Assembly (NCBI GenBank): GCA_951406725.2 | Contig: OX597817.1 | Coordinates: 129,952,001 to 130,016,000, forward strand | Direction: 5' to 3' | Origin: Octopus vulgaris | Taxonomy: Eukaryota | DNA: 64,000 bases | In this document: positions 5,161 to 64,000 of the stretch, in pieces | Layout of the letters: the number at the start of each line of letters is the position of its first letter | How positions within the stretch are numbered: the stretch's first letter is position 1 | Program-made: the position numbers and the translations under genes | Notes under the pieces: model-generated | The model's database searches: none | The model's input: the letters and a program-made list of their open reading frames with translations, nothing else | Told to the model about the DNA's origin: nothing

Positions 5161-5961
5161 TTTGAACAGTGACAATGAATCTCTAAATGCACTTAAATAA
5201 AAGAAACAGAGTGCCTAATTGTAGCAACCCAAGATCAAGCGATAGAAACAAAGGATTTGAGAGAAAATATATAGGGAGAGAATGTGTCAGAAATATGTAG
5301 AACCTATGGAACTTAGAACGAAACAGTGGCACACATTGTGACAGAATGTCCCATGTTGGCACAGGAAGAGTATAAGAAATGGAGGCACGACCAGCTGGTA
5401 AAATATTTACACTGGAAACTTTGCCAGAAATGGTGATTTGAAGCAAGAATCATACGGTATAATCATCGAGTCGGGGGAGTACTGGAGTCGGAGAACTGTA
5501 AGATTTTGTGGGACTTTCCGATTCAAACGGACAAGAAGTTAGAAAATAATAGCCCGGATATAACAATTATAGATAAGGAAAAGTAAAATCGCTTACTAGT
5601 CGAGCCATCATGCCTCTTTGATTCCAGGATCGTAAAGAAAGAGGACGAAAAGAATAATACAATTCCTTAAGATTTGAAATAGGAAGAATTTGAAGTATGA
5701 GAACAGTAAAGGTCGTGCCTATAATAATTGGTGCATTGGGAACAGTAAGGAAAGATATAGACAAATGGTTGAAGGAGATTGGAATAGAATGCTCAGTAGA
5801 GCTCCTACAGAAAGTTTGTCTCTTAGGGACAGCAAGGATTATCAGGAAGGTTCTACGCACTTGAAAGACTACTGAAAACTTTTGGGTACCTAAGGTTACT
5901 GGCAGTGACCTGCTACCCACATAATTCCTACCAGGAGTAAGACCGAACCTGAGTCAAACCA
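5160..5961 (+). mobile_element. R4/Dong-clade non-LTR retrotransposon 3' fragment (restriction-like endonuclease domain), frameshifted
   Basis: Manual translation gives ILWDFPIQTDKKLENNSPDITIIDKEK and VKVVPIIIGALGTV...LQKVCLLGTARIIRKVLRT, stop at 5862. Flanked by (AAT)n. Confidence 0.85.
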
Positions 5962-21961: not shown

Positions 21962-22254
21962 CATACATACATACATACATACATACATACATACATACAT
22001 ACATACATACATACATGCATACATACATAAACACACGTAAATACATTCGCTTGATTTCTTCCAAAGAATCTAGGGCTCAGGTTAGATTTTCTTGGGGCCG
22101 GCCAGATTAGAGCAGTCTCGAGAGTAACCGGCTAAAACTGCAAAGACGATTTGGTACTTGGCTGAAGATTGAAAGCTCCGAATGACAAGTCCTTGTTTTT
22201 TCCTGTCCTTTTTTGTATCGTCTAACTGTCCGAACGTTTTGTTGTCACCTGTTT

Positions 22255-32289: not shown

Positions 32290-33480
32290 TTTAAAAATTA
32301 AGTTAAGTAGAGTTGTTGGGGGTTACCTAAGGGGTGTTGTGGATATATGCTGTGTGGTTATTTAGGTTGCATTTAGATTTGTGGTAAAATTTGAAGGCAT
32401 GAAAAAACACAGTGGTTGCATGTACTTAGGGCCTCATTATATCTATTTAGTAGTGTCAAGTTGCGTTTTAATATGTGGAATACCTCTTTTAGGCATAACT
32501 TACAGGCTAAGCGTTGACCTTGGTATGGAAGCCCTGGGACAATTGAGGAAGATAGTCTTTTTAAATTATTGGTAATGGAACCGCGTATCTGATAAAACAT
32601 GTAAATGTTAATACTTGGGGGTTTATTATCTTTTAAACGGTTTTAATTAGCTTTAAACATAGCAAGGTTTTATAATAAAAGTTAATTACAAATACTTTTA
32701 TTAGTTCTTATTTAATAAAATTTAATGTTTCTATTAGTTACTGGTAATTTAATATTTAAGCTTGTAGTGGTGATATATTAACGAGTATGCAGTGTTTCAT
32801 TATTAACTTTTGAAAGATAAAACAATGTATTTCACTCATAATTATTATATTATTAGTTAAATTAAATTCAATCGTGTTTGTTTTGTTTTGGAGAGATTCA
32901 TATATAGCTTTAACTTTTTTATTATAGTAGTAACTATGGAAGACTAGTGGGATTATTATTTGTAAGATTGGTCACGAGTAAGCATATAATCTAGTTATTG
33001 CAGGTTTACTATTAATACCCGATGCAATGTACATTGGTTTGTGTGTTTCTTTGTTGTAGTTTTATTAAAGTTAGTGTTTAATCCTGCCTATAGTTTGATT
33101 GATTGAATGAATGTGGTTATTAAGCTTTCACTTTTATATTATACTATGGAAAACGGTAGGGAATATAATTTTTGTATGACTTAATGGATTGGTCACTGTT
33201 TCGTTACGTGTTTAGGGGCTGGTTGTAATTTAGTTATTGAATTTATTTACTGGTACGCTTGTGCGTAGGGTAAATGTGTTTGAAAGTTGTGGTTTGTTTC
33301 TTTGATATGTTTGTTCCCAAACAACACTTATTCTAGTGCTGTTGACACCGCCGGATTGAATGCCTAGGTGTCGAACCCATAATGATATCCGTGAGGCAGC
33401 TAATGATGGAGGTATGTTGGATTGTTGGTATGGTTGTTATTGTATATGTGGAATAGTATTATAGTATTATAACACATCCT
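32290..33480 (-). mobile_element. Degenerate Penelope-like element, GIY-YIG end
   Basis: ORF 32373-32600 LPYQGQRLACKLCLKEVFHILKRNLTLLNRYNEALSTCNH matches the PY..CxLCLxE..LLNxxxE..SxCxH C-terminus of PLEs. Confidence 0.7.
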
Positions 33481-53950: not shown

Positions 53951-54287
53951 CACACACTCACACACACACACACACGAAATTCGTGTTAAGCGTAGAAGCT
54001 ATGCACGTTACCAGAATTCTCAACACGGGTGCGATAGAACAACACAATCCTAACATAATTTATAGTAGTTGTGTGAATGGATATAGGGCTGACTAGCTTG
54101 TAGTGACGGAGTTATATAATGTATAAACATGAAGTCAAACCAAATAATGATATTTTAAATTCATTTAATTCGTGATTCAGATAACTAAGGAAAGGGAAAA
54201 CAAAACCAAGGTATGACGAGCATTTCAGGTCATTTAGAATATTTAATTAGAGTAAGGTGAATCAAAAAAGAAGTAGAAGTAATTAAA

Positions 54288-54363
54288 GTCTTACAGCTGT
54301 TTCTGTGATATCTCAGGTAATGGGTCAACACCCCCATACATTGGGCATTCCGTCATCGGAAAC
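54288..54363 (-). ncRNA. Type I hammerhead motif (U4C variant)
   Basis: Minus strand: gttt-CCGATGA...GAAACAGCTGTA-agac; palindromic stem III ACAGCTGT. Confidence 0.6.
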
Positions 54364-54482
54364 AAACTGTGTATGCAGGAAAATTCCAAACAGAGAATTC
54401 ACAATATATAGAAGATAGAAGAATAAAGTTCTCAGTTCATCTTGTTCTGAAAGGTATAGATGTTATATATATATATATATAT

Positions 54483-54872
54483 AGTCGCCTCCAGTTCGTA
54501 TTCGAGCATTGAGTTCATTAGTTTCATCCAGTTTCCTTGGCTGATGTTTGGGCCAAAAGTGACTTTGGAGTCCATATCGGTGGTGAAAGAGTCGTGGGCA
54601 GAACTCGCACGGGATGGTCGGTGCAGGTCGAAGATATTGAGAACGCCTCTTTCTTCTCCTACGTTTTGCATCCTCATTCTGTTGTCTGTTCTGTTCGAAT
54701 GAGCTGGTTCTATTGCAGATAACAGTCATCCAGAACGTCTTATCTATGGCAATCTGGTCCCATGAAGATGGCTGGATGTTAGCTTGAGCCAAGGTCCGTT
54801 TGAGCTGGTCTTTAAAATGGAACTTCGGACCTCCTCTGGGTCTTGTTCCGATTGCACGTTCTCCGTCAAAAA
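54483..54872 (-). mobile_element. RTE-BovB-like LINE 3' end with C-terminal C2H2-like finger
   Basis: RPRGGPKFHFKDQLKRTL...SWDQIAIDK..W...CEFCPRLFHHRYGLQSH. Confidence 0.85.
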
Positions 54873-55105
54873 CGTTGCTCTTTCAGAAAATGGAAAAATA
54901 GTTTCACCATTCCATAGCAAAACCGTTGTACTTTGACAATTTTTGATATCTTGGCATCTGAAATAGCTGGAGTTACGATAGTTTGACTAAAAGAACCGGT
55001 TACTGCAAGCAAAAATAAATATTGAAAAAAAACACATTTGGCCAAATTTGGACATACGACAGTTTAACATGATAGCAATGATATGTTTGTGTGTATGTGT
55101 GTGTG

Positions 55106-55165
<60 letters not shown>

Positions 55166-55214
55166 TATATATGCATATATATATCGCGAAAATATGTTGA
55201 TGGACATTTTCTAT

Positions 55215-55350
55215 ATTTCTGATGAAGAGCTCCGCTCGAAACGTGGAATCCTCTTTCTTTGCTTTCCTTTCCTGAGCGTCCAATAACACTGTACTTATTC
55301 CACGTCCTCGCGTTGTTGTATTTTCTTGCTTGTTCATGTTTGGATTGACT
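55215..55350 (+). mobile_element. PLE terminus with minimal hammerhead
   Basis: attt-CTGATGA-a-gagc(tcc)gctc-GAAA-CGTG-gaat at 55215-55249; downstream gagcgtccaataac resembles the 1061 family; ends in (TA)n. Confidence 0.65.
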
Positions 55351-55829
55351 AGATATATATATATATATGAATGCATGAGTGGGTGGGTAAATATGTGTTT
55401 AGACATGAAAGATTTGAATAGTTTTTTCTCTCAATTCCAGAAAGCAATAATTTTCAAGATAATTTGAAAAAAGAATTTGTATTGTTTACGCATATTTTAT
55501 CTTCTGATAAAACTGAAAAATCTTTGCAGCAGTAATATTAGGAAATATAAAGGCTTCTATCTTATAACGGAACTAGCGTATATAAAACTGTTGTACCGCA
55601 AGTTCGATGTACGATATCACGGGATAATAATAATGTCCTTGAAAACCGTTCAACTCAAGACACTGGTAATAACCCTCGACAATACTCACTCTCGGCTTTA
55701 CTCAGCGCTACACCACTGAAGGCTTTCTGCGTATGTTCATTTATATTGTCGCACAGTCCATTAGGAGCCAACCAATAGGGCTGTTCTACTTCTACCCAAC
55801 AAAAACATAGCTCTAAAGATAACACACTG

Positions 55830-56012
55830 CTGAATTAATCGAGAAGTGAAGGAAATAGCTGATAAGCTCAAGATACATGATGGAATACAATACTTAGCCT
55901 CTCTCCTATCTCTCTATCACTCTCAATGACTATATATTAAACTTTGAAAGTAACCTGTATATCAATCCTACTATACCAGAGGTAGGAATAGTTAACAAGA
56001 AAATATTGGGAG
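55830..56012 (+). mobile_element. Penelope-like RT N-terminal remnant
   Basis: INREVKEIADKLKIHD..., ITLNDY..NFESN and INPTIPEVGIVNKKIL resemble PLE ITLKDHKxNF..RLINPxKxEIG. Confidence 0.6.
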
Positions 56013-56284
56013 CGATAGGTTTTAGGGTTAGAGTAGTTTTATATTGTCTTTATGATATTGTACTTCAAAAGCATTAAAATGGTGGTGAGATAAACGATGT
56101 AGAAACCAAGCTTTTATTGACTAAAGTCTCAGAAGTTCGCAAATACTACTACGGATGATAGAATCTGCCATTACCATAATTATGAATAAAAACGAATTAA
56201 ACCTCGCCTGCATAGTGAAGGATTTTAGCAATGTGGTGATTGTAGTTTTTGCAATTTTTATTGTTATTGTTGCTAAAAATGTTT

Positions 56285-56492
56285 TAGTAGTTGCTTGTGC
56301 AAAGCTTGGGTAACCTTCATTGATCAAACCTATGATCACAAGCATTCCAGCCGTGACCATCACTTTTTTATGGATATTTCTAGAAATACATTATCTAATG
56401 TATATTCTCAGCTGTCAAAATTGTCGATCATAAATTGAGTAAGATCTAACTGCTATTTCTAACAGGTCGAGCAACCAAGTAGAGCCTCCTTC
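56285..56492. mobile_element. Ancient dispersed repeat family (about 200 bp, (GTT)n at one end)
   Basis: Motifs ctatgatca..cattccagccgtgaccatc and gctatttcta.caggt.gagcaacc recur near 4440, 37330, 37550, 46150, 57400 and 58335, and inverted near 10570 and 30050. Confidence 0.6.
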
Positions 56493-57825
56493 AATGGTTT
56501 TATTGCTGTGTAGTTTCCAAGTCAGCTCTAATTGTATGTAGACGTTCCATCTATGGCCATTCCAAAGGAAGAAGGAAAGATAGAAGGAAAAAATGAATGC
56601 GAAAATGTATGAGAAAAAGAAGGAAAGAAAAGTATGAAAAAGAGGAAGGGAAATGAATGAACTAAAGAGAATGAAATAAGGATACACAAGAAAAGAAAAG
56701 AAAAGAAACAAAGAATGAAAGAAAGAAAGAGTTAATAGAAAAGAAATATGAAAGTTTCTCTCAGATGTAAAGGGAATGAAAATAGAAAAGAAGAAAATAA
56801 GAAAAAAGGGTAAGGATGGAAATGTGATGGTGGTGGTGGTGGTGGTGGTGGTGGTGGTAGTAGTAGTAGTAGTAATACAAGGCTGATGAGAGTAGTAGTA
56901 ATAAAGGTGTTGTTGTTGGCGGTGGCGGTGGTGTACGGAATAAAGGATCTAATTAAGTAACTTCAGTCGGTAATTTTCGGTACACACGGAATGGTTCTGG
57001 AGAATTCCTTTAACCCTGTCAGCAACAATGGTTTGTTCAAATGGTGTTCATATTGGTGGTGGTAGTGGAGGTGGGTAGTTAAGGTAGGGGTGGTGTTGGT
57101 TTTGCTGTTGTTGTTGTGTTGCAGAAGGTGTTGCTGATGACTATAGTTGTAATCGTGGTGGTAGCGGCGGCGACAATGGTGGTGCTGGTGATGATGGTGT
57201 TGGTGGTGTTGGTGGTAGTTAGAGTGAAGCAATGATGGGGGTGATGATAATATTTTTGCTAGTGATAGTAGTATTATTAGTAATCAGTATTAGTAGTATT
57301 GGTAATAGTGTTTGCAGTGGTGGTGGTGGAGGTCATGATTGTACTTAAGAGTCATCATGGTCAGGTTGGTATTATTCGTAATAGTGTTTAGGTTGTTACA
57401 GCTGTTTAGCCCTAGGTTACGCCTGACTGAGCAAAGTTATGATCAGAGGTGTTCAAGCCTTGATCATCCACATTTCTTTTGTAATTCATACTATTCTCCA
57501 GATTGCATTAACCAATGTGTCCTATTTTTAAGGATTTGTGAGAGATTTGACTACCATTTCTAGTAAGTAGAGCAGTCCTTGTTGAGGAGGTAGTATAATG
57601 AGGTGTTAATATCTAATATTTATAGTAGTAACATTGATGTGGCAGTGATTCTGTATGGGTGATAGTAGCTAAAGTGGTGATGTTTGGCGCGAGAAATTAA
57701 AAGTAATAGTTTAGGGGGCACATGTACTGCTGAGGTGCCAAAGGTGGTAGTGATGGTGGTGGCTGCTATAATGATGATGGCTATAATATTAATGATTGTG
57801 GTGGTGATGTTGGTATTGGTGGAAA

Positions 57826-57960
<135 letters not shown>

Positions 57961-58515
57961 AAAGGTAGCCGTCTAGGTGGTAATGGCGGTAGCAGTGACG
58001 AGTCTGTGATGGTGATGAGTCATTCTCACCTTTCCAGTAATAATAAACGGTGGAATTTACGAGCAAAGAGAATATTATAGCGTCGAGTTGGTGATGGTGG
58101 TGGCAACAGTGGCGGCGGTGATGGTGGTGATGGTGTGAAGTGTGACGGTGTGGTGGCGATATACGAGAGGGGGCGGGGTGTCTATTAAGGAGAATTTTAC
58201 AATGTGGTGGTAGTGCTGGTGACGATGGGGATTTTATCAAAGACATACAAAAGGGTTGTTGATAAGGTGTTTGTATACGTGTGTATTGCATGTATGTGTT
58301 TGTTGGCGTAGTGTTGTAGGTATGTGCTAGTGTTGTTGTTTAAACCCAGGTAGAAATCTGATCGAGCAGATATATGGTCGAAGGCGTTCCAGCCACGACC
58401 ATCTCATCGATATAAACATATATCTAGGGTTACGTTATCTAATGACATCCACGCACTCACCTTCACTTGATAAGAGTGCAATCTGATGGGAATATGGCTC
58501 CCACGTTGGTTTTAT

Positions 58516-58564
<49 letters not shown>

Positions 58565-59140
58565 GCGCGTGTGTTAATTAGCGTCAGGTGTTGTGTATTG
58601 GTTATGTCTATATATTAGTGTATTAGGATGAATGCATGAATATGTGTTTGTGTGTGTGTCTGTGTGTGTGTGTATGTGTGTGTGTGTGTTTGTGAATGTC
58701 GTGTTAATTTACGTGATATACAAGTGTACATGTGTAATTAGGTGCCTAGCTAAAGTACGTATGTGTTTAGTTATGTGTGCATTTATATGTGTAGTTTGGA
58801 GTTATATGTATAGTTGGGCGTGTATGTAGTTATATGTATATTTAGGCATGTGTATACATAGTATGTATATATAGTCGTGTATGTAGTTTTGCGTAGAGTT
58901 GTGTGTGTAGTTATGTATGTTGCTATGTGTAGTAATATGTGTGTAGCACTATCTGAGTTCTGCAGGGGTGTACTTTGGCAAATGACTTGATCTGAGACCA
59001 TGTTTTTAAACTAAAACAATTACAACATGGAACACACATTTTAGCAATTCAAAAACACATATACATAGTTAATTTCATTCAAATATTTATTATTTGATGT
59101 CAACATTTATATGAAATATTTATGTAGTTATTTAATTTAT

Positions 59141-59424
59141 GTGAAGGCGCATGGCTTTTGATCGTGAGGTTGTGAGTTCGATTCCCGGACCGGGTTGCGT
59201 GTTGTGTTCTTGAGCAAGACACTTTATTTCACGTTGCTCCAGTTCACTCAGCTGTAGAAATGAGTTGCGACGTCACATGTGCCAAGCTGTATCGGCCTTT
59301 GCCTTTCCCTTGGATAACACTGGTGGCGTGGAGAGGGGAGGCCAGTATGCATGGGCTTGTACCTAGGAGGGTAAACTCCCTAGGTGCAATCCCATGGTCA
59401 ATCATGACCGAAAGGGGTCTTAGC
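59141..59424 (+). mobile_element. SINE family C, tail type 3, with target-site duplication
   Basis: B box gagttcgattccc; CORE-like ttgagcaagacacttt; atttaatttatgtg duplicated at 59130 and 59425. Confidence 0.9.
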
Positions 59425-59519
59425 ATTTAATTTATGTGTAAAATTTGTGCAACGTGTGCATAGTTAGCTATTGTGTGTAACTATGTATGTAGTATCTCCA
59501 TCAACTCCTGGCACTCTCT

Positions 59520-59890
59520 TATCCCTAAATGTAGCTAAAGACTAAGAAGAGGTGAAGGACAGCCACAAGAATGAATGAGTAGTGAACGAGGTATTTGCCA
59601 GTGAAACTTGGCAGTCGAGGGTTTTCAGGTTGTACACTGAATAAGACCTATGGGACGCTGGATGTTTCAGGTACATACAGAAGAAGAGACATCAATAAAG
59701 AATATTGTAGAGGCTGCTGTGAAAACATTCAAATGGCTCTGGCTGAAAAGAGGGGATTCTTGGGTCTAAGCTTGATCAACCCAGATCGAATCGCCTGGAT
59801 GAAGGTGTATGTTGTGAGGCCCGAAACATCGAGTGAATCCGAGATAAAACGCTGACGTTGTGCTCAAGCATTGCATCTGTAGATGTAAGA
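59520..59890 (+). mobile_element. HERO-like RLE non-LTR retrotransposon 3' end
   Basis: PVKLGSRGF..L.KTY.TL..SG..RRR, and in a shifted frame AAVKTFKWLWLKRG, resembling the PVEVGCRGF...WLWLKR C-terminus. Confidence 0.7.
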
Positions 59891-59927
59891 TGTCAACGTA
59901 CATCTACAACTTGTAGATGTATGTGTA

Positions 59928-60133
59928 GTTGTTGTTGTTGTTAAGCAACAAGACGGGTAAGGGTGATTAGGTGATGGTCTAGGGCTTAGGGGCGGGAGAC
60001 CCCAGACCTTGGAAAAAAAAACTGTGGTCGTCTTGTTGTAGTCCAGAGCTCTTCGTTAACGCCAGACACCACTGGGAGGTGGCCCTCGAAGTCGCTGGAA
60101 ATGGAGATCTCCATGTCCAAATTCTTGAACGGC
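59928..60133 (-). mobile_element. LINE 3' end with (AAC)n tail, possibly Ingi/Nimb-like
   Basis: GC-rich block ending in (caa)n on the minus strand; EELWT..P motif. Confidence 0.4.
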
Positions 60134-60683
60134 TGTAGTTAAGTATGTAGTTTCGTGTAAGAAGATGTGCAGTTAAGTATGTAGTTATGTGTAGGTGTGT
60201 ATATTTATGCGTATAAGTAGATGTGTAGTTATATATATACGTCAGGTAACGAATGCAATTATGCTTGTAGTTAGGTTTTTATTTAAATGTATCCTATTGT
60301 TAGTTGCGTAGCTAGCTATATATGAGTAATTAGCTTTGTACATTATAAGTGCAAATATTCTTTCAAACGGACACTTTCAAATAAGAAAATGGTATGTATA
60401 AACAATAGTTTGTATAATTTAAATACACCATTCATCTTTCTCATTGCTTCAGACTCTACATACTTCTTCCCACCTCTCTCTCTTCTCACATTCTCTGCTC
60501 TATATCTTTCTCCCTTCATTATTTATGGTTCTTCTCTTCTATCCCACTTTAAAATAATTCTCAACAATCCCGGCGCCGTATCTGTCTGTTAGTCTATCTG
60601 TCTGCCTATCTGTATGTCTGTCTGTTCATCTGTCTCTGTCTATTTGTTTGTCTGTCTTTCTCTCCCCCTCTCTTTTTATCTAA

Positions 60684-60723
<40 letters not shown>

Positions 60724-60726
<3 letters not shown>

Positions 60727-60916
60727 ATTTCTTTATTGCCCACAGGGGGCTAAACATAGGGGGGACAAACAAGGACAGACAAAGGGATTAAGTCGATTAC
60801 ATCAACCCCAGTGTGTAACTGGTACTTATTTAATCGACCCCGAAAGGATGAAAGGCAAAGTCGACCTCGGCGGAATTTGAACTCAGAACATAACAGCAGA
60901 CGAAATACTGCCAAGC
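60724..60916 (-). mobile_element. SINE family B with an alternative, Tx1-like tail
   Basis: Core cgaccccgaaaggatgaaaggcaaagtcgacc; tail tttctttattgcccacagggg resembles 6867. Confidence 0.8.
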
Positions 60917-61522
60917 TTCAAATTAGCTTTCTCCTTTCTAGTTTTGAGAATCCTAATTTCTCAAGATTGTTATTTAGGCAGTGTGTTACATATTTCAGAG
61001 CCCTTATAATTAAAGATACAAACCTGAACTTGTAATTTGGATAGGGTAACTGCAGATCCCTCAACAGTTCAGCGTAGGTATTCTCTTTTTCACTGATCTT
61101 CAGCTTTATATTAACATCCGCTGGGCAGCTAATTTCCACAACTGTACAGTTCCTCTTCTCTATCACAAATCATCATATAAGATCTGTTGTGCTTACACTT
61201 TATTGAGGTCTTCACTGGGACATCCCATCAATACTCCTTTTTATCATGAGTGGCTATGGCTTCTACCATACTCTGGGTTCTTATTTCTTTGTCCTCGGGG
61301 TTATCCTTCTGACAGATTTCATTATATAGTGTCCTAACTACAACATCATGTCTTATCGGTAGATAACACCGTGATGACATTTTCGGTCAACTGCTTATGA
61401 TATGGGTAATATCTTCGGTGTTAACTCCACAAATTCTACACCGGTTGTCACATTTTACTGCTTTTCCTGCATCTCTTTCCCTTTTATGCATCAGGTACTT
61501 GGTTGATATTTCCTGTTCCTGT
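60917..61522 (-). mobile_element. R4/Dong-like fragment (CCHC knuckle plus RLE)
   Basis: QEQEISTKY..., CRICGVNTEDITHIISS, RHDVV, CTVVEISCPADVNI...EKENTY. Confidence 0.85.
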
Positions 61523-62499
61523 ATCTATGTATGCATATGAGTTATAGAATTACCGGATCGTTTCCGAAAAGTTAACGGATATTTTTCCAAAATTTGGTGT
61601 TATTTATTGAAGAAAGTGAAGTAACTCATATAAACGTCTATATTTCCTCTTTAGGTGGGGTGGGGGAGAAAAAGAGGAATCTGAATACAAGAAAAGAAAG
61701 ATGAGAGTGCTTGCCTGTGTTCGTAAAATATAATTAAAAGTTACTATGTTTATTTAATATTGGAAAATTTTAACTGTTTGTGGATTTCAAGAAGATTTGC
61801 AATGTTATATAAACAAATAAATACATAAAAAATATTTAAGATGGAGAATTAATTTATGGAGTAGAGTGTAGATATAAAGTTACTGCTAATCTGGAGAAAT
61901 AAATGAGTACAATAAGTAAAAGAGGTCTTATCTTGGATCAGTCAGTCGGTTCAACGAAATAGAATGTCAGTAGTAAATGCCATTTGTAAGAAGTTAAACG
62001 AATTAGGGTTAGGCAAATTGAAAAAAAATATTTATATATGAAATTAAAGGATAATTGTAGGAAACAAATAGGTTTAGAATGGGGATTATAGGAATTCCAT
62101 GCTAGGAATTAAATGCTAAGAGACTTTAATTCTTGATGGTTAATAGTGTTTGTAGTTAGTCGAATTAATTGATTAATAAAGAGTAGAATTTTGTAGTTTT
62201 ATTTTGTGGGATTATGTTATGATGCAATTGGTTGTTTGTAAAAGTGTAAACGTTAGAGTGAGTAAAATGTCAGAAAGTAATAATCTTGAGTTCTGAATGA
62301 TTAAGCGGAGAGTGACACTTAAATATGGAATTGAGTATAGAGTAGAAGGGAAATCAGTATAATTATATGAACGGAAGAGATAGAGAGAAATTATAAGGTT
62401 AAGTGAAATAGAAAGAAGGAAAATGCATAGGGTTGAATATCAAAATGATATGAATATATAGGAGGGTTTGTAAATAAGCAATTATGAATGTATATTGAA

Positions 62500-62615
62500 G
62501 AAAGGAATGGTTGTGCGGCACTTTGGGTAAGAGCTTTTTTATATAACCCAAGGCCGATCGAAATAGTGGGAAGAAGAGAATTTGGTAGACGAAAACTGTG
62601 CAGAAACCCAACATG
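62500..62615 (+). mobile_element. SINE family A core remnant
   Basis: gaatttggtagacgaaaactgtgcagaaaccc. Confidence 0.55.
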
Positions 62616-62859
62616 TGCGTGTGTGTGTGTGTGAGTGTAATGTAAAGTGAGAAAATAATTATATATGCAAAAGCATATAAACTAAGGTTAAGAGTTGGGT
62701 GTGGTTTGTAGACGTTGTATGTCGAGTGTGGAGGATTACGGTCAAATGTGAAAGGGTAGATGCTGAGGGCGATATGTTAGTATGTTTGTGAGCGTGAGAA
62801 TAAGGATTATGGATATAAGTGTGTGCACAAGGAAGGAGTATGAGGTAACGTGAGGGCAT

Positions 62860-63950
62860 GTCAGTGTGAGAATCCGAGTTTAGTAAACTGAGAGTAATAA
62901 TTTAGACTATAAAGAAAAAAGAGCTTCCGTTTCTTTTAGAAGCGAACGGTTGGGGATTCGATGTTGGAGGCCAAACCATAGACTGAAAGATACTGGAATG
63001 CAGAGGCTGACAGAGCAGAAATGTTAAGCAACAGGCGACCTGTTGTGAAGTGGATTGTCTGTGAGATGATCTACGAATCTCTTTACAGAGGGTACTGTGT
63101 GCTTCCTTACTCCAATCCCTTTACAGAGGGCACTGAGTGCTTTTTCACATACCAAGCACTAGTAAGATCATCAAATAACTTACAAGATAGGACCCCTCAA
63201 CTGAGTAGGGGTGTAGTATTGAGGAGGCTTTATGTCAGGTGACGAAAGGTTAAATTATGATAGAGCGACAGAAACAGGTGTCTTTCTTAACTGTGGCAGT
63301 AAATTGGAACCCTGTCATGAACAATGTTTGCTCAAATTTTTCTTAACAATTTTATTCGCTGAGAAATCTCTCCACCAACAAAGAAGAGACATTTGGCTGT
63401 CAATTTGCCGATGTAAATTGAAAAGCAGAGGGAGCACTTCACTGCATTAATATAGTTGATGAGTGTACATCAGACACGGTGGAAACAGAGAAAGTAAGAG
63501 CCTAGGATAATGTGTTTAGTGCAAGTTGAGTTGGAGAAGGAAAAATCAGAATCCGAATCAGAAGTGGAAGTCGATGGTTTTAAATAAAACGAATGATGTC
63601 AAGGAAATTGACTACGGTTTCAGAGATGGAGGAGGTACATTGAAGATACGAGTGAAATGAACTGACAAGAGAGTTGAAAAAGTTTAGTTGCTTGTGACAG
63701 AAGGAGCTGTAGATCTCTGAAACGAGACCAATGAACTGAAAAAGATTTGAAACAAACCGTAACCTACGAATAGGTTGGTGTATTTGGGGCTCTTTATTGT
63801 GTCCATGGCCAATCCAGTAATATGCTTTACACACACAAAAAAGAAACAATCAAGTGTAAATACAACTTAGTCTAAGGGAAAGAGGGGAAACACTTGGATA
63901 AAAATTGGCGGCGCGGATGTCTTCGTCGAGAAGGATGGCGGTATAATAAA
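62860..63950 (-). mobile_element. Degenerate Penelope-like element (RT, thumb, GIY-YIG)
   Basis: LNFFNSLVSSFHSYLQCTSSISETVVNFLDI (RT motifs 6-7); a decayed YxKPTD-like motif; DHLTDNPLHNRSPVA*HF (nuclease EH..PVAxHF). Confidence 0.8.
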
Positions 63951-64000
63951 GTGATGATGATCATGCTGAAGTAATTGGAAACCGGAGAGAAAAGGAAAAG

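Follow-up and report, generated by a model that had tools for sequence, protein, structure and literature searches.

A non-nested hammerhead variant with an upstream stem II in a HERO-like retrotransposon of Octopus vulgaris

Hammerhead ribozymes in which the conserved boxes run in the order cleavage site, GAAA, CUGANGA were described as type SGC by Eckert et al. in 2023 from metatranscriptomes only, with in vitro validation of cleavage and of all stems (PMC10085705). According to the available portions of that article, a search of RefSeq revealed no type SGC in genomes of known organisms, and CUGANGA and its strand of stem II were assumed to form an inseparable block because known insertions between them comprise at most one or two bases (PMC10085705). 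Core insertions of only one or two bases are also given in the accessible text of Perreault et al. 2011 (PMC3088659). Among mobile elements, the Naiads form partial tandems and favour (TA)n, and the available account by Craig et al. 2021 states that they lack canonical hammerheads and sometimes contain half-cores (PMC8557442). The literature that we searched, which lay outside subscription journals, Repbase Reports, Dfam and bioRxiv supplements, yielded no paper on a HERO ribozyme, no SGC hammerheads in genomes, and no hammerhead with the junction described below; such a ribozyme is likewise unmentioned in the portions available of three papers from 2026 and of a preprint from that year (10.64898/2026.07.22.740005).

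The window analysed here is a stretch of 64,000 nucleotides of Octopus vulgaris DNA (contig OX597817.1, positions 129,952,001 to 130,016,000 of the forward strand). A sequence-only reading had picked out hammerhead parts in the order NUH, GAAA, CUGANGA within the 3′ UTR of a HERO-like retrotransposon, and all of these pieces are present on the + strand where it placed them: GGTGTA at 59804-59809, one strand of stem I at 59810-59816 and its partner at 59845-59851, the strand 59817-59822 before GAAA (59823-59826), CATC at 59827-59830, CTGACGT at 59852-59858, and a strand at 59859-59865. The real feature is about twice the reported length and occupies 59759-59869 (Table 1). Translations place it 3′ of the end of a degenerate, frameshifted RLE retrotransposon ORF, and a covariance model trained without this copy matches it with 47.1 bits and an E of 1.2e-11. 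On the strength of these sequence comparisons we reject chance assembly of the boxes.

Table 1. Coordinates in the window of the retrotransposon remnant, of the parts of the hammerhead-like fold, and of two further copies of the fold
Feature	Position	Strand	Basis
5′-truncated HERO-like RLE non-LTR retrotransposon remnant (ORF end and 3′ UTR)	59551..59896	+	BLASTN limits against sister copies
End of frameshifted RLE endonuclease domain, stop at 59767-59769	59586..59769	+	translations, relatives
Outer helix P0, remnant of 5′ strand (six bases deleted)	59759..59762	+	sister-copy comparison, covariance model
Hairpin P1, loop with UGAUCA	59763..59787	+	alignments of relatives
True stem II, 5′ strand (positions 10.x), two mismatches	59788..59792	+	pairing in relatives
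Helix beyond the kink-turn, 5′ strand, with its GA	59794..59802	+	pairing in relatives
Stem III, 5′ strand, with the GUA triplet; bond after 59809 predicted to be cut	59803..59809	+	
Stem I, 5′ strand	59810..59816	+	pairing in relatives
Stem II 3′ strand (59818-59822), GAAA (59823-59826), stem III 3′ strand	59818..59831	+	
3-nt bulge and GA of the kink-turn signature, with 3′ strand of the helix beyond	59832..59843	+	
Stem I, 3′ strand, with the CUGANGA box (U at A9)	59845..59858	+	
Outer helix P0, 3′ strand (the 'weak stem II' of the sequence-only reading)	59859..59867	+	
3′ tail lacking poly(A), reaching the fixed 3′ end of the family some 85-90 nt beyond the cleavage site	59868..59896	+	
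Degenerate copy of the same fold, non-coding 780-bp repeat family	22064..22179	+	covariance model
Further degenerate copy of the fold, of the 3′ UTR type published for Naiads	33310..33417	+	model E 0.045 (weak alone), likeness by eye

Relatives were fetched by protein alone to avoid circularity, which gave 69 metagenome loci, 63 of them with room downstream. The covariance model finds the motif in 54 of these 63 loci (15 of the 54 belong to its training set), and two of the nine that it misses (L078 and L085) still agree with the full descriptor. Among the lettered rows of 57 aligned matches the core is nearly invariant: U16.1 is kept in 52/53, C3 in 53/54, U4 in 54/54, G5 in 52/54, A6 in 55/55, G8 in 53/57, A9 in 50/57, G12 in 44/54, A13 in 54/54, A14 in 53/53 and A15.1 in 52/54. 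N7 and H17 vary, as a hammerhead allows, with H17 other than G in 50 of 53 rows, and nine rows have A at G12, which we put down to CpG decay. Between families, the representatives are no more than 37-75% alike.

Stems I and III had been proposed from the single copy and are borne out by pairing and covariation in the relatives; stem I, a pseudoknot stem that lies outside the model, is 90.6% paired in the 57-row alignment. The weak stem II that had been drawn with the strand after CUGANGA did not survive: this pairing is 66.4% complete in two alignments, as against 54% in shuffles, and a run of at least four consecutive downstream pairs is present in just one of 29 parsed loci. The strand before GAAA instead pairs with a segment lying about 19-20 nt 5′ of the cleavage site at U16.1, and this upstream stem II is 95.2% paired in a structure-blind MAFFT alignment of 25 sequences and 94.3% paired in the 57-row alignment, which was not fitted to that stem. 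The strand after A9 is engaged elsewhere, with a segment 43-47 nt upstream, in an outer helix that we call P0, typically of 8-12 bp and 91.9% paired in relatives; the alignment behind the percentages for P0, P1, stem III and the kink helix was fitted to the model for these four helices. P0, the hairpin P1, stem II and the core meet without an unpaired base and thus form a perfect four-way junction between A9 and G10.1. The full descriptor with a perfect junction is found in 22 of the 29 parsed metagenome loci, compared with 56 of 1450 upstream shuffles.

A kink-turn consists of a canonical stem, a 3-nt bulge, tandem G.A and A.G pairs and a second helix. Stem III is extended in this manner: a 3-nt bulge and tandem G.A/A.G pairs lead on to a helix of 5-8 bp, and the signature bases are well kept (G 52/54, A 54/54, partner A 51/53 and G 51/53, with U as third loop base in 46/54). 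At the level of sequence every element of a kink-turn is in place, and the turn would presumably bend the chain back to stem I. In the structure-blind MAFFT alignment of 25 sequences, 84.7% of cells in all seven helices are paired compared with 66.5% after shuffling and 34-49% when the strands are slid, and double changes occur in 33 of 40 pairs, with covariation in all seven helices; kinship among the sequences inflates such shuffle statistics. RNAalifold recovered P1 and the upstream stem II unaided, and no other helix. The check suggested in the sequence-only reading, for invariant boxes and covarying stems in family alignments, came out in its favour, with stem II taken upstream. We regard the fold as almost certainly conserved.

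As a negative control, the same core pattern was followed in 121 prokaryote matches and 13 distinct viral matches, and stems I and III are formed in only 3 of the 121 and in none of the 13. Two of the three exceptions are the same motif (L203 2560-2681 and L260 254-372); they occur in bacterial metagenome bins, have no ORF upstream and are followed by telomere-like repeats, and are likely to be host DNA in the bins, from a non-autonomous family; apart from these two, the prokaryote matches are attributed to chance. Viral contigs held no protein relative.

At the level of sequence and structure the fold is that of a hammerhead. The family has conserved CUGANGA, GAAA and NUH elements, and stems I, II and III abut the core and covary. 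The boxes follow the S, G, C order with a linker of 0-8 nt from stem I to stem II, as in type SGC, and the fold departs from that type in one defining feature: the 5′ strand of stem II does not directly follow CUGANGA (66.4% downstream versus 94.3% upstream). The strands that correspond to the SGC helix joining the distal ends of stems I and II are here taken up by P0 and the kink helix. No match to a type I, II or III hammerhead model of Rfam was found at E up to 10 in window positions 54000-64000 and nine loci, as anticipated for standard models, and the published SGC pattern misses the fold as well. The sequence-only reading did not say whether the topology had been described; the box order had already been reported and validated as type SGC (PMC10085705).

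The copy in the window had been called degenerate, and comparison with its sisters agrees. A DNA search of the same genome listed 43 matches (40 of 49 candidates scored), the non-self ones with 64-81% identity and most of them spanning the UTR, and in an alignment of 26 of these the majority shows intact boxes and seven perfect base pairs in stem I. Relative to the majority of 25 sister copies, the window copy has U in place of A9, has lost six bases of the outer helix P0, and carries two mismatches in the true stem II. Its folding is about that of its shuffles (z -0.25), a single-sequence measure that cannot show pseudoknots. A natural A9U hammerhead variant still cleaves (Eckert et al., PMC10085705). 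Judged from its sequence as a whole, the window copy is probably inactive.

The element itself was traced with an open 110-aa endonuclease fragment from another copy, which retrieved 244 proteins (mostly RT-RLE polyproteins of fish) and, with E up to 0.001, 3090 cluster representatives; a degenerate 70-aa fragment gave no relatives as a protein query. Full-length relatives (L061, L067, L071) have a single ORF of about 1120 aa with RVT_1, zf-RVT and a C-terminal RLE domain, and the window retains only the last 60 or so codons of this RT/zinc knuckle/RLE ORF. The L067 protein is 68% identical to AAN12398, which we take to be Zebulon, and BAC82598 and BAC82599 are presumably HERO elements. The label HERO-like refers to identity to these accessions rather than to RT phylogeny; in this sense the proposed setting in the 3′ UTR of a HERO-like retrotransposon is upheld, with the motif adjoining the degenerate end of the RLE ORF. 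The last 18 residues of P0099 and the last 8 of P0121 look, by eye, like in-frame read-through of the 5′ arms of the ribozyme, and from these C-terminal tails the ORF appears to overlap the ribozyme in some elements. The window also contains, at 60860-61500 on the - strand, a broken zinc-knuckle and RLE endonuclease region of a different RLE retrotransposon, behind which the covariance model finds no such motif; a further zinc-knuckle/RLE-type fragment at 5293-5424 on the + strand (tblastn E 0.005); and an open frame at 54463-54882 on the - strand, which resembles the C-terminal part, zinc finger included, of an RTE-type retrotransposon ORF.

The model trained on HERO-type copies also matches a second family in the same genome (family 2), which is unrelated in sequence and has perfect stems I and II, neither of them encoded in the model. 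Family 2 is a non-coding repeat of about 780 bp with 2084 first-look candidates, the best copies being 92-95% alike. It has (TA)n both inside the unit and at its end, often forms partial tandems (spacings of 781 and 787 nt) and also occurs as adjacent inverted copies. No tRNA head was seen in five loci and no long ORF in the translated copies, and the family (L274-L333, with 22064-22179 on the + strand in the window) looks like a retrozyme. The junction descriptor is found in 29 of 42 parsed copies as against 148 of 2100 shuffles, and the downstream stem II of the sequence-only reading is possible in 2 of the 42; folding lends no z-score support (0.08). Two short family-2 motifs were not found in the text of the Naiad supplement, in which line breaks could hide them.

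By eye, some published Naiad consensuses carry the same arrangement. The scan was made by eye and covered 58 of 62 places of one box and the first six places of five other terms in the portion of the supplement available; among the matches listed, ten records have the same order with an upstream stem II, and three others have the canonical order. Nine of the ten show a clear P0/P1 junction, and several have a long extension of stem III rather than a kink-turn. An Octopus Naiad motif has 118 exact matches in the O. vulgaris genome (control 0), and the model matches 18 of 20 fetched Naiad-type loci (L334-L353), 8 of them at E < 0.01. On the descriptor the own-genome Naiad copies are weak, with 4 of 11 as against 133 of 550 shuffles (24%). 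No ORF with an N-terminal GIY-YIG and an RT lies within 1.5 kb in the 20 fetched of the 118 matches, and the link to Naiads is near identity to the 3′ ends of the Naiad_Obim and Naiad_Ovul consensuses as published in that portion. By the covariance model, decayed copies of all three families (HERO-like, 780-bp and Naiad-type) lie in the window.

The placement of the motif within complete elements suggests how it could be used. Zebulon elements form partial tandems. In L067 and L071 the motif stands both before and after the ORF with spacings of 3643 and 3683 nt (a 3.65-kb unit), and the 3′-end location that had been proposed is thus correct but incomplete, with the feature at both ends of full-length elements. 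The terminal repeats of these two loci differ slightly (one indel; 83/90 identical); repeats at contig ends could partly be assembly effects, though both copies differ in sequence. Six loci (L067, L071, L074, L090, L091 and L109) run from the motif into the 5′ UTR of the next unit, five of them near +90. Solo copies have a fixed 3′ end, with 25 of 37 estimates at +82 to +95 past the scissile bond and no poly(A), and because they end at this fixed place the copied RNA always holds an intact cleavage site and priming lies inside the tandem unit. One family (L118, L120, L126-L129) keeps the fold and ends about 190 nt or more past the site, not about 88. A conserved 5′ UTR motif begins where solo copies end (L067 110-230, L071 90-230, L074, L090, L091, L109); it is probably structured and is a candidate priming or translation signal. 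L071 starts one base past the predicted cut, a single contig end that we do not count as evidence. One RNA contig runs across the cleavage site, which fits read-through RNA and a sealed circle equally, and RNA runs of low share were not taken as a sign of expression.

Conservation of the core predicts self-cleavage after NUH, and for intact copies we consider cleavage after GUH to be likely, bearing in mind that activity is an extrapolation because we found no validated hammerhead with a junction between A9 and G10.1. Two such cuts on a tandem transcript would release a unit-length monomer, the ends of which would stay clamped since P0, stem II, stem III and the kink helix each draw a strand from the 3′ end. 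The nick could then be sealed, by self-ligation or a host RtcB-type ligase, or be crossed by the RT. Target-primed reverse transcription would start internally near +88, and an RT primed there would meet the 5′ end after 88 bases and so would have to cross the sealed or nicked junction; going round more than once would give rise to partial tandems. Animal retrozyme monomers circularise mainly via RtcB (PMC7229834), and a PLE RT initiates internally in the data available to us (PMC11167929). We therefore put forward, with somewhat more confidence than doubt, that in intact elements unit-length RNAs cut by the ribozyme, end-clamped or circular, serve as template for reverse transcription; for the cleaved monomer or circle as the main template the chances appear about even.

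Our preference is held no more firmly than this because the genomic pattern is accounted for just as well by priming on read-through RNA that has not been cleaved. The ribozyme might work and the template nonetheless be uncleaved RNA primed internally near +88, with cleavage conditional on protein and serving 5′-end processing, translation or turnover rather than circles. We consider this combination unlikely, yet it is the alternative to be taken most seriously. The accessible data on the PLE PAc are the main evidence against a circle step: insertion in vitro was not lowered by mutating the ribozyme, the substrate was mainly RNA that had not been cleaved, the ribozyme needed protein, and no reads ended at the cleavage site (PMC11167929). 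The ribozymes of R2 and Perere-3 process 5′ ends, all genomic copies keep an intact site, and the RNA contig spans that site, as a sealed circle would also allow. Arguing the other way, both ends of the product would stay paired by four helices, an arrangement suited to re-joining, and both the 3.65-kb element and the 780-bp repeat occur as tandem units that are constant in length and contain the priming point.

Another reading would make the active form a plain type-SGC hammerhead with stem II after CUGANGA, as drawn in the sequence-only reading, and treat the upstream pairings as an off-state. Downstream pairing does exceed that of shuffles, and the first stem II pair of L091 comes from downstream. 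In addition, a G stands two bases after A9 in 44 of 57 rows and matches the published SGC core with an extra U (PMC10085705), which is why the junction may slip by one pair toward the validated SGC core. The L076 group, L078/L085 and family 2 do not permit such a slip. In these and in L112 the cores are intact, a downstream stem II cannot form (0-2 pairs), and the upstream stem II has 5-6 perfect pairs; a plain SGC form appears very unlikely.

R2-type proteins bind their RNA at the place that the motif occupies, and both the UGAUCA loop and the kink-turn look like protein-binding elements. It could be argued on these grounds that the fold is a non-catalytic scaffold derived from a hammerhead and used by the element's protein for template recognition. 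We give this little credence, as G8, G12, U16.1 and a non-G H17 are kept across families that are only 40-55% alike and also between unrelated classes of element. Minimal PLE hammerheads work as dimers, and the sequence-only reading had offered a pseudoknotted or a dimer-assembled topology; the crossing stems hold, and an obligatory dimer was rejected because every stem closes in cis within one copy. Assembly from two copies, whether as a dimer or in trans and for instance through the UGAUCA loop, which is palindromic and kept in most HERO families, is highly improbable given this closure in cis and the absence or alteration of the loop in L111, L078, family 2 and Naiad copies.

The broadest reading of these results is a tentative one that we hold with rather less than even confidence: a seventh hammerhead architecture, with the CUGANGA-stem II block split by a four-way junction and closed by a kink-turn, would be common to two unrelated retrotransposon classes, HERO LINEs and Naiads, and to their non-coding parasites, HERO elements would be copied from a ribozyme-made circle by internal priming, and the missing Naiad hammerhead would be found. 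As far as our searches show, this is the first non-circularly permuted hammerhead in animal genomes. The fold breaks the assumption, as worded in the available text, that CUGANGA and stem II are inseparable (PMC10085705), and offers a direct answer to the stated puzzle that Naiads 'lack canonical HHRs' and yet show half-cores (PMC8557442). Because neither Rfam models nor the published SGC pattern detects it, counts of ribozymes in animal genomes are likely too low. The proposed mechanism supplies a testable reason for the partial tandems of HERO-type LINEs, and a fold able to hold the two cleavage products together might find use in the production of circular RNA. RLE retrotransposons are under development as gene-insertion tools.

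Comparison with known systems places these observations in context. The element shares with HERO/Zebulon RLE elements a single ORF (about 1120 aa) that combines RT, zinc knuckle and RLE, and differs in its ribozyme, none being found for them in the literature searched. The type I hammerheads of PLE pseudo-LTRs and retrozymes resemble the present system, in the portions of the sources available, in that a hammerhead lies in a partial-tandem terminal repeat, unit-length RNA is defined between two ribozymes, priming is internal, and non-autonomous tandem derivatives exist (PMC7229834, PMC8557442, PMC11167929). Those ribozymes have the nested order, a three-way junction and GIY-YIG PLE proteins, whereas the present fold is non-nested and occurs in an RLE-type LINE and in Naiads alike. 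The HDV-like ribozyme of R2 and the twister-variant ribozyme of Perere-3 likewise process a non-LTR transcript by self-cleavage; in the accounts available they belong to other classes, lie at the 5′ end and cut at the element boundary, in contrast to the present site, which lies some 88 nt before the 3′ end and stays intact on copying. With type SGC (HRIMA-1 and its variants) the fold has in common the box order, the short linker from stem I to stem II, a doubly pseudoknotted core and, often, an extra base after A9. In type SGC, stem II directly follows CUGANGA and a fourth helix joins stems I and II, whereas here stem II is delivered from upstream through a four-way junction with P0 and P1 and stem III runs through a kink-turn or a long extension; and where type SGC is known from metatranscriptomes only, the present fold sits in animal retrotransposons.
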